Shown here one piece after another: positions 2,490 to 11,358 of a stretch of DNA of 64,000 nucleotides. Origin of the DNA: Candidatus Woesearchaeota archaeon (GTDB lineage: Archaea > Nanobdellota > Nanobdellia > Woesearchaeales > SKIA01). Where the stretch lies: contig JBLKOP010000003.1 of the NCBI GenBank assembly GCA_047602905.1, positions 15,508-79,507 on the forward strand. The letters are read 5' to 3'. Both the position numbers and the translations under genes were made by a program. The notes below the pieces were generated by a model. That model searched no databases. It was not told the origin of the DNA and was given only the letters and a program-made list of their open reading frames with translations. How positions within the stretch are numbered: the first letter of the stretch is position 1; each line of letters starts with the position of its first letter.

Positions 2490-2785
2490 TGTAGTCGTGC
2501 CGTGTAGCTATCGGTACTTGTACTGAGGAACGTCCGCCCACTCATAACGGGTTTCAAGCAGCGGAGACGCAGCAAAGCGAGGCGCACAAGAAAAACAACC
2601 GTGAGCAGCGAGGAGGAAGAGCAGCGAATGCTTAGACGTTGCTGCTTGCAAGGCTGAGAAGCGCGCGCACCCGGAGTGCAACCAAGAAATTTTGGGCTTA
2701 GGCGAATGCTACACAGACAATCCATGACGTGCTACCCGTGCGTACAAGGTGTCTGCACAGAAGGCGGCGTACAGGCACGCTACAC
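2490..2785 (+). ncRNA. rnpB: RNase P RNA (archaeal)
   Basis: GC-rich island with GAGGAACGTCCGCCCAC (CR-I/P4 5' strand, from 2525) and ACAGAAGGCGGCGTA (CR-V/P4 3' strand, ~2757-2771). P1 pairs TGTAG-T-CGTGCC-G-TGTA (2490-2506) with TACAGGCACGCTACA (2770-2784). TTTAAG box at 2461. Confidence 0.9.
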
Positions 2786-5943: not shown

Positions 5944-6372
5944 ATGAAAGCCGGTATGCGACAACTAGCAATCGCAGAACACCTACTTAACAAAAGCTAC
6001 CCAGCACTACAAGACCCAAAAATCTTACTTAGTGTACTACAAAACCTTCTTGCAGCCATAGACGAAGCAATCACGCAACACCTACAAGAAGCAAGAAAAA
6101 ACCACGAAATACCTCCGTACAACAACACCCTAAACGGACGACTAAACGCAGCAAGAATGCACTTAGCAAAGAAAAAAAACATCACCAAAGTAGACTTCAT
6201 GATGATAAGTGAAATACAAGAAACCCTATCTGAGCATGAACAAGCACCAACAGAATTCAAAAAAAACAACGCGTTATACATAGCAAACAACGACTTTCAC
6301 CTCACAAAGCTTGACGAGAAGAAAACAAAGACTTATATGTCCAGAACAAGAACCCTATTGACACGGCTATGA
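5944..6372 (+). CDS. Hypothetical helical protein (paralog of 6369..6833)
   Basis: Host-like codon usage; shares (A/V)EHL, (I/V)LL and EF(K/R)(K/R) motifs with the next ORF. Confidence 0.75.
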   Translation: MKAGMRQLAIAEHLLNKSYPALQDPKILLSVLQNLLAAIDEAITQHLQEARKNHEIPPYNNTLNGRLNAARMHLAKKKNITKVDFMMISEIQETLSEHEQAPTEFKKNNALYIANNDFHLTKLDEKKTKTYMSRTRTLLTRL

Positions 6373-6833
6373 ACGAAGAACAACAAGACTTTCTAGACGA
6401 CGCAGTAAACGAACTCAAACGAGTAGAACACCTCGTATTCGTAAGCCTCAAATACACACGAACAGTAGACGTACTCCTCAACATCATCAGCCGACAAATA
6501 GACGGCTACGAAGCAATGTGGAACGCACTACTCACAAAACTCGTAGAAGAAAAAAAGATACCAAGCATACCAGAAGCACCCGTACCAAGAGCAAACGCAC
6601 TCATGCAACACTACATGCAACACCCAGAGATACTTGAGAACGTAGAACTATACATCCTCCTAAGAAAACTACACCGATCAAACCCAGAGCGAGAACAAGA
6701 ATTTCGAAGACACGTAGCAATGAGAACAGTAATAGACGGAAGAGAAGAAGTAGTAAACATAGACATAATAACGCAATACGCACAAATACAAAAAGAATTC
6801 GTTAAATGGCTGTACACATTCTTAGAAAAATAA
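6369..6833 (+). CDS. Hypothetical helical protein (paralog of 5944..6372)
   Basis: ATGA overlap with the upstream ORF; ELKRVEHLVFVSLKYTRTVDV. Confidence 0.8.
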   Translation: MNEEQQDFLDDAVNELKRVEHLVFVSLKYTRTVDVLLNIISRQIDGYEAMWNALLTKLVEEKKIPSIPEAPVPRANALMQHYMQHPEILENVELYILLRKLHRSNPEREQEFRRHVAMRTVIDGREEVVNIDIITQYAQIQKEFVKWLYTFLEK

Positions 6834-6877
6834 CCTCAACGAAGCCCTTATAAATACGGTTTGCTTACCAAAATATA

Positions 6878-7157
6878 ACCGTTTGGCCTTAGGTTCTTGT
6901 ACAAGCAATAGGCGAGCCGCCTACGCGATGAGTACGAGCCACCACCAAGCGATCCAGCCCTCCGCGAGAGTACCCGAGTAAGCAACGGTGAAACCACCAA
7001 GCAAGGACCAAGGGAGTTAGTAGCGAGGGCGTCACCATCACCACTGCATCACCAGAATCACAATCATCACCAACAAATAAGTGCTTTGGGAAACCATTCG
7101 CGAAGAGAGGGGAGTAAACGATTCTTAACACAGCAGCGGTGGGAGAAGAATCCACCA
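6878..7157 (+). ncRNA. Candidate structured RNA or long 5' leader of dnaG (family not recognised)
   Basis: TATA (CTTATAAATA, 6847-6856). Helices 6887-6899/7002-7013, 6909-6923, 6957-6962/7025-7030, TGG-GAAA-CCA (7087-7096) and GGTGG/CCACC (7138-7156). Confidence 0.65.
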
Positions 7158-8357
7158 ATGGCAAAAATTAGTCAAGCAACATCAAAGTACATCATAAAGG
7201 CAAGCATTAACATCGAAGGAGTAGTCGAGAGACCAGACGTAGTAGGAGCAATATTTGGACAAGTAGAAGGACTACTCGGAAGCGACTTAGAACTACGAGA
7301 ACTACAAAAAAGCGGACGAATAGGAAGAATAGAAGTACACGTAGAAAGCAAGAGCGGAAAAACCAGTGGATCAATAGAAATACCTAGCAGCCTAGACAAA
7401 GCAGAAACAGCAATCATCGGAGGAGCACTAGAAACCATAGAAAGAATAGGACCGTGTGATGCAGTAGTAGCAGTAGAAGAAATAAAAGATGAACGAATAG
7501 AAAAAAGGCAGAAAGTCATTAACCGAGCAAAAGAACTCCTCAAAAAAATGAACGACACAGGAACAGAAAGCAGCGAGTTATCAAGTGAAGTAACAAGCGG
7601 AATACGACTCATGGAAATAGGAACGTTTGGACCAGGACTAGCGTGCGGACCAGACATCCTAGAAGAAAAAGAAATCATTTTCGTAGAAGGAAGAGCAGAC
7701 GTAGTAAACCTGCTTAAGCACGGAATAAAAAACGTTGTGAGCATCAACGGAAGCAACATACCAAAAGAAATACAACAACTCAGCAAAGAAAAAAACGTAA
7801 CAGTATTTTGTGACGGAGACAGAGGAGGAGACCTCATCATAAAAGCACTCCTAGAAACATGCAAGATAGACTACATCACCAAAGCACCAGACGGAAAAGA
7901 AGTAGAAGAGCTACAACAAAAAGAGCTCTTACAAGCACTCAGACACAAAAAAACCGTTGATGAATGGACAGGAAAAAAGAGCAGCAAAAAAAGTAGTAGC
8001 AGCAAAAAAACTACCAAAAAAACTACTAAACCAACAAGCAAACAAACAAAGAATAACAAACCCTCTGTAAAACTAAGTGATGAGCAAACAAGCCAATACA
8101 AGAAACTACACAAGGAACTAAAGAAAAACAAAGACGCATACGTACTAGACAAACAAGACAAGATACTAGGAAAACTCGCGATAAAAGACCTAGAAGCAAC
8201 ACTACCAAGCCTAGACAACGTACAAACAGTCATCATAAAAGCAGACGTAGACGAAAAAATTGCTCAAGCAATGAGTAAAGGACGCATAAAAACACTTGTA
8301 GCAAACGGAGGAGAAGAAAACATGCGAACAAACCTCATAATAGCAAAAGACCTCTAA
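7158..8357 (+). CDS. dnaG: Archaeal DnaG-type primase / exosome-associated protein
   Basis: GVVERPDVVGAIFGQVEGLLG, TOPRIM IFVEGRADV and CDGDRGG. Start taken as ATG 7158. Confidence 0.95.
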   Translation: MAKISQATSKYIIKASINIEGVVERPDVVGAIFGQVEGLLGSDLELRELQKSGRIGRIEVHVESKSGKTSGSIEIPSSLDKAETAIIGGALETIERIGPCDAVVAVEEIKDERIEKRQKVINRAKELLKKMNDTGTESSELSSEVTSGIRLMEIGTFGPGLACGPDILEEKEIIFVEGRADVVNLLKHGIKNVVSINGSNIPKEIQQLSKEKNVTVFCDGDRGGDLIIKALLETCKIDYITKAPDGKEVEELQQKELLQALRHKKTVDEWTGKKSSKKSSSSKKTTKKTTKPTSKQTKNNKPSVKLSDEQTSQYKKLHKELKKNKDAYVLDKQDKILGKLAIKDLEATLPSLDNVQTVIIKADVDEKIAQAMSKGRIKTLVANGGEENMRTNLIIAKDL

Positions 8358-8361
8358 GAGC

Positions 8362-9048
8362 GTGGCCGTAAACGCAGCAAGAGAAGAATGGAGGATACGA
8401 GACGGAGTATTTGACAACTTCACGCTGCGAATACTAGAAAAACTACGAGGACAAAAACACTTTGACGAACTAGAAAGTGCGCTAGCACTAGGAAAAGAAG
8501 CAAACGTATTCACAACAAAAGCAACGCAACCAACAGTAATAAAGATCTACCGCCTAGAAAACAAGGACTTCAACCAAATGCTAGGATACCTCCTACAAGA
8601 CCCTCGCTACATGCACACAAAAAGAAGAAAAAGAGAAATAGTCTTTGCATGGGCGCAAAGAGAATACAGAAACCTTCTTCTAGCAAGAGAAGCAATACCT
8701 GTACCAAAACCAATAGCGCACAACAAAAACGTACTTGTAATGGAGCAAATAGGAACTCCACAACCAGCACCCAAACTCAAAGACGCCCAACCAACAAACC
8801 CAGAAGAATTCTTTAGCAAAGTAGTACACTACATGAAAGAACTCTGGAGAATACACCTAGTACACGGAGACCTCAGCGACTTTAACATACTCAACAACAA
8901 CGAACAACCAGTATTTATTGATTTCAGCCAGTGCAGCAGAACAGACGCGCCAAACGCAGAAGAACTCTGGCAGCGAGACGTGAAAAACATCATAACAGCA
9001 GCAAGAAGAGCAGGATACGAACTAAGAGAAGAAGACTTTACTCGATAA
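8362..9048 (+). CDS. rio1: RIO1 family kinase
   Basis: GKEANVF, IKIYR, WAQREYRNL, LVHGDLSDFNIL, FIDFSQ. Confidence 0.93.
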   Translation: MAVNAAREEWRIRDGVFDNFTLRILEKLRGQKHFDELESALALGKEANVFTTKATQPTVIKIYRLENKDFNQMLGYLLQDPRYMHTKRRKREIVFAWAQREYRNLLLAREAIPVPKPIAHNKNVLVMEQIGTPQPAPKLKDAQPTNPEEFFSKVVHYMKELWRIHLVHGDLSDFNILNNNEQPVFIDFSQCSRTDAPNAEELWQRDVKNIITAARRAGYELREEDFTR

Positions 9049-9099: not shown

Positions 9100-9645
9100 A
9101 TGCTCTCCTACAACATAAAAATACCGCACGACAGAATAGCCGTCCTCATAGGAGTAGATGGCAAGACGAAGCGAAGAATAGAAAAAGCAACCAAATGCGA
9201 AATAGACGTAGAAAGCGTTGAAGGAGAAGTAACTATCTCAGGAGAAGACGGACTAGCACTCTTTGACGCACAACACATAATAAAAGCAATAGCAAGAGGG
9301 TTTAACCCAACAAAAGCTCTACGACTACAAAAACCAGACTACTCACTAGAACTCATAGACCTACAAGACTACCACGACAAAAAAAACCATCACGAACGAA
9401 TGAAAGGACGAGTAATAGGAAAAGAAGGAAAAAGTAGACGAGTAATCGAGCAACTAGCAGAATGCGACGTGTGCGTATACGGAAAAACAATAGGAATAAT
9501 AGCACCAACAGAAACCATAGGAATAGCAAAAAAAGCAATAGAGATGCTGCTTGAAGGAGCAAATCACAGCACCGTATTCACGTTTCTAGAAAAAAAACGC
9601 CGAGAACAAAAACTCGCAAGCCTCATGGGAGCAAAGAAAAGATAA
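9100..9645 (+). CDS. KH-domain pre-rRNA processing protein (Dim2/Pno1/Krr1 family)
   Basis: RIAVLIGVDGKTK, AIARGF, KGRVIGKEGKSR, EMLLEGANHSTV. Confidence 0.92.
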   Translation: MLSYNIKIPHDRIAVLIGVDGKTKRRIEKATKCEIDVESVEGEVTISGEDGLALFDAQHIIKAIARGFNPTKALRLQKPDYSLELIDLQDYHDKKNHHERMKGRVIGKEGKSRRVIEQLAECDVCVYGKTIGIIAPTETIGIAKKAIEMLLEGANHSTVFTFLEKKRREQKLASLMGAKKR

Positions 9646-9711: not shown

Positions 9712-11358
9712 GTGGCCACAGCAGAAGAACTAGCAAAACAGCAACGAGAAATAAGCATAGCAGAATTCTTTGAGAAAAACAGACACTTACTAGGCTTTGA
9801 CAACGCAAGAAAAGCACTCCTAACAACAGTAAAAGAAGCAGTAGATAACAGCCTAGACGCATGTGAAGAAGCAGACATCCTACCAGAAATAGAAGTAGAA
9901 ATCATAGACATGGGAAATGACCGCTACAGAATAATCATCGAAGATAACGGACCAGGAATAATAAAAGCACAAATAGGAAAAATATTTGCAAAACTCCTGT
10001 ACGGAAGCAAATTTCACAAACTTTCCCAGTCTCGCGGCCAACAAGGAATAGGAATAAGTGCTTCAGTAATGTACGGACAACTAACTACAGGACGAGCAGC
10101 AAGAATAACCAGCAAAACAAGCCAAGAAAAACTTGCAGAATACGTAGAAGTAAAGATAGACACAAAAACGAACAAGCCAGACATCGTTAGAGAAGAAGAA
10201 AAAGAATGGAGTAAAGCACGAGGAACAAGAGTAGAAATAGACCTTGAAGGAAGTTACGCGAAAGGAAGCCAATCAGTGGATGAATACCTCAAACAAACAG
10301 CAATAGTAAACCCGCACTTACAACTCATTTACGTAAACCCGCGAGGAGAGCAGTACCTCTTTCCACGAGCAACAGAAAAACACCCAGAACTACCCCAAGA
10401 AATCAAACCTCACCCGTACGGAGTAGAACTCGGAATGCTCATCAAAATGCTAGGATCAGCAGAACAAAGAACCGTACTAGCATTTCTAAGAGAAGAATTT
10501 GTACGCGTAAGCAACGCAGTAGCAAACGAGATACTCGGACACGCAAAGATAAGCCCAAAAGCAAAACCAAAAAGTCTACAGCGAGAACAAGCAGAAGAAC
10601 TCATAAAAGCAATAAAAAAAACAAAAATTATGAGTCCACCAACAGACTGCATAAGCCCAATAGGAGAAGAACTCCTGCTTAAAGGACTAAAAAAAGAAGT
10701 AAACGCGGAGTTCTACACAGCAGTAAGCAGAACACCAGCAGTATACAGAGGAAATCCGTTTGCCATAGAAGCAGCGATAGCATACGGAGGAAACATCAAA
10801 AGTGACGGAGCAGTCAATGTTTTACGATTCGCAAACAAAGTACCCTTACTCTACCAGCAAGGAGCGTGCGCAATAACAAAAGCAATTAGTGAAACCAACT
10901 GGAAAAGCTACGGACTAGAACAATCAGGAAATAACCTCCCAAAAGGACCAGCAGTTATTCTTGTACACATGGCAAGTGTGTGGGTGCCCTTTACCAGTGA
11001 AGCAAAAGAAGCAATGGCGCACTACGATGACATCATCAAAGAAATCAAGCTCGCAGTACAAGAAGCAGGGCGCAACCTACAAACCTACACGAAGAAAAAA
11101 CAAAAAGTAGGACGAGAACTCAAGAAAAGAAGCTACATAGAAAAATACTTACCACACCTCGCAAGCAGCGTAACAGCAATACTAGAAGGAGACAGAGCAG
11201 ACGAGGAAGAACTCACCAACCACTTAGTAGACTTACTAGAAAAGAAAAGAGGAGCATTAGATGATCTGCGCTTTGACCCAGAAGCAAACGAGGAGTACGA
11301 CGAAGAATTCGCAAAGATAGGACGAGAAGACGAGGAGGAAGAAAAAGATGAGTTCTAA
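9712..11358 (+). CDS. top6B: DNA topoisomerase VI subunit B
   Basis: [44 protein letters not shown]. Confidence 0.97.

Follow-up and report, generated by a model that had tools for sequence, protein, structure and literature searches.

Two described archaeal RNAs resemble the element reported here. In Nanoarchaeum equitans, a single box H/ACA small RNA (sRNA) of 159 nucleotides (nt) was detected by RNA-seq; the report describes two kink-turn (K-turn) hairpins separated only by ACA, and a gene located between that of the tyrosyl-tRNA synthetase and a hypothetical gene (Randau 2012, PMC3491384). In Haloferax volcanii, it was shown experimentally that stem-loop 2 of the RNA sR-h45 directs the formation of two pseudouridines from the unpaired UVUN of helix 69 (PMC7075261, 2020). 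Here we analyse a stretch of 64,000 nt (the window, whose coordinates we use throughout) from the 99%-complete genome of a Candidatus Woesearchaeota archaeon (G000; assembly GCA_047602905.1, contig JBLKOP010000003.1, positions 15,508 to 79,507 of the forward strand), and specifically its positions 6879-7039 (+), which precede the gene dnaG. From the comparisons below, this segment very probably encodes a two-hairpin RNA of the archaeal box H/ACA type, a pseudouridylation guide directed to helix 69 and to the A-loop of the 23S rRNA. The RNA is most likely of a known kind, unannotated in this group, and involves no new regulatory principle.

The limits of the RNA were set by several observations. 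A TATA-like box (TTATAAATA) lies at 6848-6856 (+), with its centre about 27 nt before position 6879, where the conserved RNA model begins, and a regular-expression scan recovered a TATA-like motif within 50 nt upstream at 32 of 34 homologous loci. A covariance model of the family (R1) matches 6879-7039 (+) over the whole model with 150.2 bits. The GC content is 0.58-0.59 at 6900-7049 and 0.33-0.46 in the flanks, and the + strand of 6878-7160 folds better than most of its shuffles (z = -2.09, 4/200 equally good), whereas the opposite strand does no better than shuffled sequence (z = +0.30). Most likely, then, the structured RNA spans 6879-7039 (about 160 nt) and would be transcribed from the TATA box at 6848-6856; three metatranscriptome runs, all from one study, gave no coverage of 6700-7500 and are uninformative either way on transcription. 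An earlier reading of this DNA, made from the letters alone (the original prediction), had proposed a structured RNA of some 280 nt, beginning near 6878 behind a TATA box, richer in GC than its surroundings and reaching to the dnaG ATG. The promoter, the start, the GC contrast and the distance to the ATG (at 7158) agree with our results, as does a conserved and structured RNA ahead of dnaG; its extent, by contrast, is about 160 nt and not 280.

The RNA is widely conserved. In a blastn search of 40 relatives, five genomes had its core (about 6890-7066), four of them from the genus of G000 and the fifth from its family; identity was 75-82%, and the core was always just upstream of dnaG. With G000 itself this makes six genomes, and in all six the stretch from AGGUYCUU to GGGC measures 139-140 nt. 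These six sequences were used to build R1, which has exactly one match at E <= 0.01 in 131 of the 151 genomes sampled from the order Woesearchaeales (a count that takes in the unpublished genome G137); among the high-quality genomes of the order, 106 of 116 have a match. When the class was sampled, R1 matched 38 of 151 genomes, namely all 19 belonging to the same order and 19 of the 132 from other orders. The two hairpins are not equally constant: a short plain hairpin stands in place of hairpin 1 in 8 of the 20 weaker matches fetched from the order and in most matches from other orders. Judged from these sequences, hairpin 2 is the constant core of the RNA family.

The order of the parts in both hairpins (lower stem, internal loop, upper stem, K-turn and apical hairpin) is, as far as alignment can define it, the architecture of archaeal box H/ACA RNAs. 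In hairpin 1, a lower stem of 7 base pairs (bp) is followed by an internal loop of 9/6 nt and an upper stem of 6 bp. All on the + strand, the 5' strand of the lower stem, CGUUUGG (6880-6886), has CCAAGCG (6945-6951) as its partner, 97% of the cells being paired and 6/6 pairs showing double changes; the 5' strand of the upper stem, CUUGUA, and the non-bulged strand of the K-turn, C-A-A-GC, occupy 6896-6906, as placed by the alignment; the apical hairpin UAGGCG-AGC-CGCCUA (6907-6924) varies in stem sequence among relatives while its pairing is kept; and the bulged strand of the K-turn, GC-GAU-GA, with the 3' strand of the upper stem, GUACGAG, lies at 6925-6938. Hairpin 2 has a lower stem of 8 bp (6+2), an internal loop of 7/5 nt and an upper stem of 5 bp. 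The 5' strand of its lower stem, GCCCUCCGC (6957-6965, +), pairs with 7020-7030, where the 3' strand carries a variable bulge of 3 nt, and double changes occur at 3/6 of the outer pairs; its upper stem, K-turn (GU-A-A-GC / GC-AAG-GA) and apical hairpin GGUG-AAAC-CACC fill 6973-7014 (+), again as placed by the alignment. The published descriptor asks for at least 7 bp in the lower stem, at least 5 bp in the upper stem and 5-11 nt on each strand of the internal loop (Muller et al. 2008, PMC2377435). Both hairpins have stems and loops within it, although in G000 only 3/5 pairs of the hairpin 2 upper stem are Watson-Crick.

Both hairpins carry the same K-turn signature, 5' N-[G/A]-A-GC opposite 3' GC-NNN-GA, which is a signature in sequence only. 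The GA of the bulged strand is kept in 32-34 of 34 sequences (in hairpin 1 the G in 34/34 and the A in 32/34; in hairpin 2 both in 34/34), and position 1n is A in 34/34 in each hairpin. At position 2n, G prevails over A, by 25 to 9 of the 34 sequences in hairpin 1 and by 29 to 5 in hairpin 2; G000 has A in both cases. In each hairpin, 9 positions separate the distal G:A from the base of the upper stem, and the distance published for archaeal H/ACA RNAs is 9-10 (PMC7075261).

Comparative data support this fold. In an alignment of 34 sequences fitted to the model, 92.7% of the cells pair, against 79.0% in shuffles (0/500 as high); slid partners in the same alignment pair in only 28-41%, and double changes are seen at 22/41 pairs. 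Because this alignment was fitted to the model, we repeated the analysis with MAFFT and RNAalifold on 32 sequences, namely 31 of the 34 plus L120 (the G165 locus), leaving out L006 (a near-duplicate of L005), L048 (a long insertion) and L049 (a truncated hairpin 1), and obtained the same fold, with 38 pairs, 24 of them compensatory.

Several parts of the original prediction are found in this fold. The hairpin TAGGCG-AGC-CGCCTA is real, being the covarying apical hairpin of hairpin 1, and so is the pairing of GCCCTC (6957-6962) with GAGGGC (7025-7030), which forms the lower stem of hairpin 2; the repeated ACCACCAAGC is indeed present at 6941-6950 and 6993-7002; and covariation, which was to be tested in the dnaG upstream regions of relatives, is seen as the compensatory changes of the two-hairpin fold. 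Other proposed pairings failed. The 12-bp long-range helix joining 6887-6899 to 7002-7013 pairs in 53.3% of the cells across 34 homologues and in 52.6% in shuffles (102/500 as high), and sliding one partner by +1 raises the figure to 60.5%; since this helix is rejected, the pseudoknot built on it has no support either. The 5' segment thought to compete for 7134-7140 is the CGUUUGG that pairs with 6945-6951 instead, and the GAAA tetraloop hairpin at 7087-7096 would have a stem of only 2-3 bp.

What do the conserved loops recognise? We scanned the loop strands against G000's own 16S and 23S rRNA. For hairpin 2, the best site is 23S UAACU-AUA-ACUCUC in helix 69, with 11 (5 + 6) Watson-Crick pairs and a score of 20, the next site scoring 14.5. 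On the 5' side of the pocket, GAGAGUA (6966-6972, +) is invariant in 34/34 sequences, and its GAGAGU pairs with 23S A1939-C1944 (ACUCUC); on the 3' side, AGUUA (7015-7019, +) pairs with U1931-U1935 (UAACU), its GUUA being invariant in 34/34 and its first base A in 32 and G in 2. This pairing leaves A-U-A open, or U-A-U-A if the first loop base is unpaired, bases that we take to be U1915-A1918 in Escherichia coli numbering. Helix 69 is identical in all 33 genomes of the order from which it was recovered, so that co-variation with hairpin 2 can be sought only outside the order; the fit to this helix is not always perfect, as the guides of G092 and G102 have one mismatch each. Outside the order, G191 and G226 have U for C at 1920 and their guides have A for G (2/2), the guide reading GAGAAU(U) and helix 69 AAUUCUC. 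A search of other orders with the helix 69 pattern found nothing in 9 of 10 genomes, where the rRNA is probably unassembled or the pattern too strict. A side observation concerns the same genes: the 23S genes of L130 (G191), L135 (G092) and L136 (G013) are interrupted by about 330-780 nt directly after UUAAGGU, 3' of helix 69, as are probably those of G017, G125 and G067, and these interruptions are probably rRNA introns.

The case of hairpin 1 is richer in changes. The 5' side of its pocket, CCUUAGGUU (6887-6895, +), contains UAGGU (6890-6894), which pairs with 23S A2569-A2573 (ACCUA) on the 3' side of the A-loop stem, and in the 3' side, CCACCA (6939-6944, +), CACC (6940-6943) pairs with G2562-G2565 (GGUG), the CAC being conserved in 33-34 of 34 sequences. 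Tested on the rRNA of G000, the hairpin 1 loops select the A-loop (helix 92) in 20/34 guides, the next site being selected by 4/34. We then fetched this 23S segment from 35 other genomes, so that every guide could be set against the rRNA of its own genome. In 22 genomes hairpin 1 is canonical and the A-loop readable, and in 22/22 of these the guide base opposite E. coli 2560 is Watson-Crick paired (C:G in 17, U:A in 3, G:C in 1 and A:U in 1); the 14 omitted are 12 lacking a canonical hairpin 1, G114, for which no A-loop sequence was available, and G048, which was mis-parsed. With their own rRNA, most guides form 6 + 7 pairs. On this comparison of genomes, both loop pairings are kept by compensatory changes in guide and rRNA within the same genome. 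The conserved loop sequence is thus explained, since the internal loops are complementary to, and co-vary with, helix 69 and the A-loop of the 23S rRNA. The complementarity of the loops to helix 69 is also why an early idea, a permuted 5S rRNA or a mimic of the sarcin-ricin loop suggested by the motifs GAGAGUAC and GGAGUUAGU, was dropped.

From these pairings a mechanism can be proposed. L7Ae would bind the K-turn of each upper stem, Cbf5 and Nop10 would hold the lower stem and the 3' box, and each internal loop would pair with 23S rRNA on either side of a uridine, which Cbf5 would convert into pseudouridine. The site or sites predicted for hairpin 2 are U1935 and/or U1937 of G000 in helix 69 (E. 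coli U1915/U1917), and that for hairpin 1, in the helix 92 A-loop, is U2567 or U2566 of G000 (E. coli U2555 or U2554). The pseudouridine of the yeast A-loop presumably corresponds to E. coli U2554, and the commonest pairing here points to U2555. G000 encodes a Cbf5 with TruB_N, TruB_C_2, DKCLD and PUA domains, and genes for Nop10 and L7Ae are present.

However, some features of the G000 copy and of our methods weigh against this reading, and they deserve to be considered together: (i) An ANA (usually ACA) box is expected just 3' of each hairpin (PMC2377435; PMC7075261), and G000 has CCA in the hinge (AUCCA, 6952-6956, +) and UCA in the 3' tail (GUCACCAUC, 7031-7039, +). (ii) The box stands 15 nt after the upper stem in hairpin 1 and 16-17 nt after it in hairpin 2; the latter is at or beyond the rule of 15 ± 1 nt between box and target uridine (PMC7075261), a source that also reports activity at distances up to 17 nt, and looping out the variable 3-nt bulge would bring the hairpin 2 distance to 13-14 nt. 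(iii) Between hairpin 1 of G000 and the A-loop there are only 4 + 5 Watson-Crick pairs, with three bases (U-U-C) open instead of two, and the first base on the 3' side of the hairpin 1 loop is C in 12/34 sequences. (iv) Position 2n is A instead of G in both G000 K-turns, and the upper stem of hairpin 2 retains only 3 Watson-Crick pairs. (v) Gar1 (PF04410) was not found in G000, in a search that also missed it in Sulfolobus, one of four archaeal controls. (vi) The region 6700-7300, scanned against Rfam at E <= 10, gave nothing on the + strand, and no H/ACA family scored. (vii) The model-fitted alignments (A4 and A5) favour the model's own structure, and our broad target scans tried many geometries. 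The case rests on co-variation because a single scan match is not significant alone; a genome-wide target scan that allowed G-U pairs was uninformative, with many U-rich matches.

The boxes can be followed across the family. Of 54 homologues, 21 have ACA, 13 UCA and 6 CCA as the hinge box, and 30 have ACA, 14 UCA and 3 CCA as the tail box; nearly all copies retain the CA, but the first A is not kept. Both A's of ACA are reportedly recognised by Cbf5, and sR-h45 needed the ANA of its hinge (PMC7075261). By the strict box rule, the G000 copy is non-canonical because its boxes are CCA and UCA and not ANA; on its sequence, we therefore class it as an NCA-box variant of the H/ACA type, a guide whose boxes are degenerate, and not as a canonical member. 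The same features lend themselves to another interpretation: an H/ACA-type ribonucleoprotein that pairs with helix 69 and the A-loop and assists folding or assembly as a chaperone, with no pseudouridine made, or an RNA of which only hairpin 2 is active in this genus. The two non-ANA boxes, the missing Gar1 and the weak pairing of G000 hairpin 1 would suit it, as would the requirement for the ACA box reported for the atypical double modification of helix 69 (PMC7075261). On the other side, Cbf5 is intact, with its PUA domain, and the box CA is retained in nearly all copies; the compensatory changes between guide and target show that the pairing matters, not what its outcome is. We consider this interpretation unlikely, and prefer a pseudouridylation guide.

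If the RNA is a guide, why had it not been annotated? Scanned at the gathering thresholds of Rfam, the window yields two tRNAs only; the comparison with Rfam proposed along with the original prediction thus matched no family and leaves the RNA unannotated. Literature on ACA and pseudouridylation together, in DPANN archaea or in connection with archaeal dnaG, contained no prior description of this RNA that we could find. A GC-rich RNA of this size might also be a divergent copy of a universal RNA, that is, of the signal recognition particle (SRP) RNA, RNase P RNA or 5S rRNA, all similar in size and GC content, or a C/D box sRNA read from the minus strand, where sR2 matches weakly at 7015-7074 (17.9 bits, gathering threshold 42, E = 0.14). 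All three universal RNAs are elsewhere in the genome: the SRP RNA at G000:C5:3187-3459 (120.8 bits), the RNase P RNA at window positions 2491-2783 (+) (81.0 bits, just under the gathering threshold of 84, which is why the default Rfam scan misses it) and the 5S rRNA at G000:C12:2608-2722 (74.2 bits), in agreement with the original prediction, which had set aside SRP and RNase P RNA. The minus strand folds no better than its shuffles, and the sR2-like match arises from CAUCAC repeats, with no D boxes. We give these possibilities next to no chance. Nor does the CAUCAC run encode a small histidine-rich peptide, as it has no start codon and no codon-like conservation.

In nearly all loci examined, the RNA is directly followed by dnaG. 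A Pfam scan identified, all on the + strand, dnaG (a Toprim protein, 7158-8357), a RIO1 kinase (8362-9048), a KH/Pno1-Dim2-like protein (9100-9645) and topoisomerase VI B (9712-11358). In each of the three sets of loci examined, dnaG is next on the same strand (5/5, 28/28 and 15/16), and among the loci from other orders it follows in 7/8, the exception being G165. The gene upstream of the RNA is not conserved outside the genus: two open reading frames (142 and 154 amino acids) occupy 5944-6833 (+), neither with an identifiable Pfam family, and the longer is syntenic within the genus (66-73% identity) and is not found upstream of the RNA in other families.

This arrangement raises the possibility of control in cis, with the RNA as the leader of the dnaG mRNA and serving as a riboswitch or protein-binding operator for dnaG expression. 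Besides the gene order, an SD-like (Shine-Dalgarno-like) motif precedes dnaG at 32/34 loci, which suggests that dnaG is translated from a leadered mRNA, and a run of at least 4 T occurs within 40 nt 3' of the RNA at only 4/34 loci, with none in G000 until 7085. Four observations count against such a leader. Its invariant loop bases are already accounted for by pairing with rRNA, with which they co-vary; the distance from the RNA to dnaG ranges from 86 to 563 nt, and the spacer has no shared structure in close relatives (across six of them, RNAalifold called 0 pairs 3' of 7039, and the single-sequence fold has z = -0.96); the homologue of G165 has no dnaG within 2 kb; and hairpin 1 has been lost or replaced in many lineages in which dnaG remains. 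We regard control of dnaG by this RNA as very unlikely. The link to dnaG that the original prediction had drawn thus holds as a fact of gene order, whereas a cis-regulatory switch or a DnaG-bound RNA finds no support.

The spacer itself (7040-7157, +) is probably the dnaG leader. It contains an SD-like GGAG and, with the end of the RNA, five [A/U]UCA[C/U] motifs at 7037-7070; over the 34 spacers, these motifs occur 156 times against 34.1 expected (4.6-fold). The G000 unit AUCACC resembles the 3' end of the 16S rRNA, GGAUCACCUCCU. A GGUGG...CCACC hairpin can be drawn at 7138-7156 (+), ending 1-2 nt before the dnaG AUG and with GGAG in its loop; it had been proposed to cover the SD-like sequence, and although it can be drawn by eye in 5/6 close relatives, no tool supports it, RNAalifold included. 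In other families, the dnaG leaders (L026-L052, for example L050, L047, L046 and L043) carry a long helix, GAACAAGCUU...AAGCUUGUUCU, and often a second module, composed of an SD-like AGAAGGAG and a short AUG-started open reading frame closed by CUCCUUCU; G000 has neither module.

Because of the synteny with dnaG, the SD-like motifs and the scarcity of T runs, co-transcription followed by processing is possible: the RNA may be its own transcript, or a dnaG-rio1-dim2 transcript may release it from its 5' end. A more speculative extension, which we think unlikely, is that the guide RNA is the 5' module of a single ribosome-biogenesis transcript (sRNA, dnaG, rio1 and dim2), cut from the dnaG leader, perhaps by DnaG or the exosome itself, with the AUCAC(C) clusters acting maybe as a decoy for Dim2 and thereby as operon feedback. 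If this were true, the shared transcript would explain a gene order fixed across the class. The fixed place of the RNA before dnaG-rio1-dim2 hints at the co-expression of functions in ribosome biogenesis, and is otherwise unexplained.

Taken together, these results point to a guide RNA that most sampled Woesearchaeales possess in a single copy and that also occurs in other orders of the class; it is absent from Rfam, and standard pipelines would miss it. They also predict two pseudouridine sites in uncultured archaea, one at the near-universal position in helix 69 and one in the A-loop, a site of which we found no mention in the archaeal literature cited here. The frequent NCA boxes, together with the missing Gar1 match, would offer a natural test of how strictly Cbf5 depends on ACA.

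How does this RNA compare with other systems? L7Ae reportedly binds K-turns in the 5' leaders of archaeal mRNAs, and the G000 RNA resembles these leaders in having a K-turn upstream of a protein-coding gene; unlike them, its K-turns form part of complete guide hairpins, the loops of which co-vary with rRNA, and no regulatory role is needed to account for them. In eukaryotes, snR191/U19 (helix 69) and snR10 (A-loop) address the same two loops by bipartite pairing in an H/ACA pocket; these are separate RNAs with H and ACA boxes and without K-turns, in contrast to the G000 RNA.

A closer scenario occurs with the sRNA of N. equitans, a member of the same archaeal class. It shares with the G000 RNA a similar length, two K-turn hairpins, a hinge of a few bases and a box-A promoter of its own. 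The homologue of G165 (L120) helps to connect the two: R1 matches it with 53.9 bits (E = 2.7e-11) over model positions 1-159, with both hairpins; it has a TTTAAA/TATA promoter, a hinge consisting only of ACA and a 3' ACA followed by T5, and it adjoins a gene for a class-I synthetase of the Trp/Tyr type. From its sequence, this RNA fits the published description of the N. equitans H/ACA sRNA. The loops of hairpin 2 are nearly the same in RNAs of the N. equitans type and in that of G000 (GAGAGU.. and.GUUAGUG). The differences are that the N. equitans RNA has ACA in both hinge and tail, followed by a stretch of T, whereas that of G000 has CCA and UCA and no T stretch, and that the N. equitans gene does not precede dnaG, whereas the G000 gene does.

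The comparison with sR-h45 is one of layout. Both are single RNAs with two stem-loops and K-turns in the upper stems, those of sR-h45 having tandem G:A pairs (PMC7075261). In sR-h45, pseudouridine 2605, which lies between helices 90 and 93, is guided by the 5' stem-loop, whereas hairpin 1 of G000 pairs with the A-loop of helix 92, and a linker of 56 nt with an H box separates the stem-loops of sR-h45, where G000 has a hinge of 5 nt. The 3' stem-loop of sR-h45, as described there, makes both pseudouridines of helix 69 from one pocket, with the target UNUN unpaired, and hairpin 2 of the G000 RNA can form the same layout.

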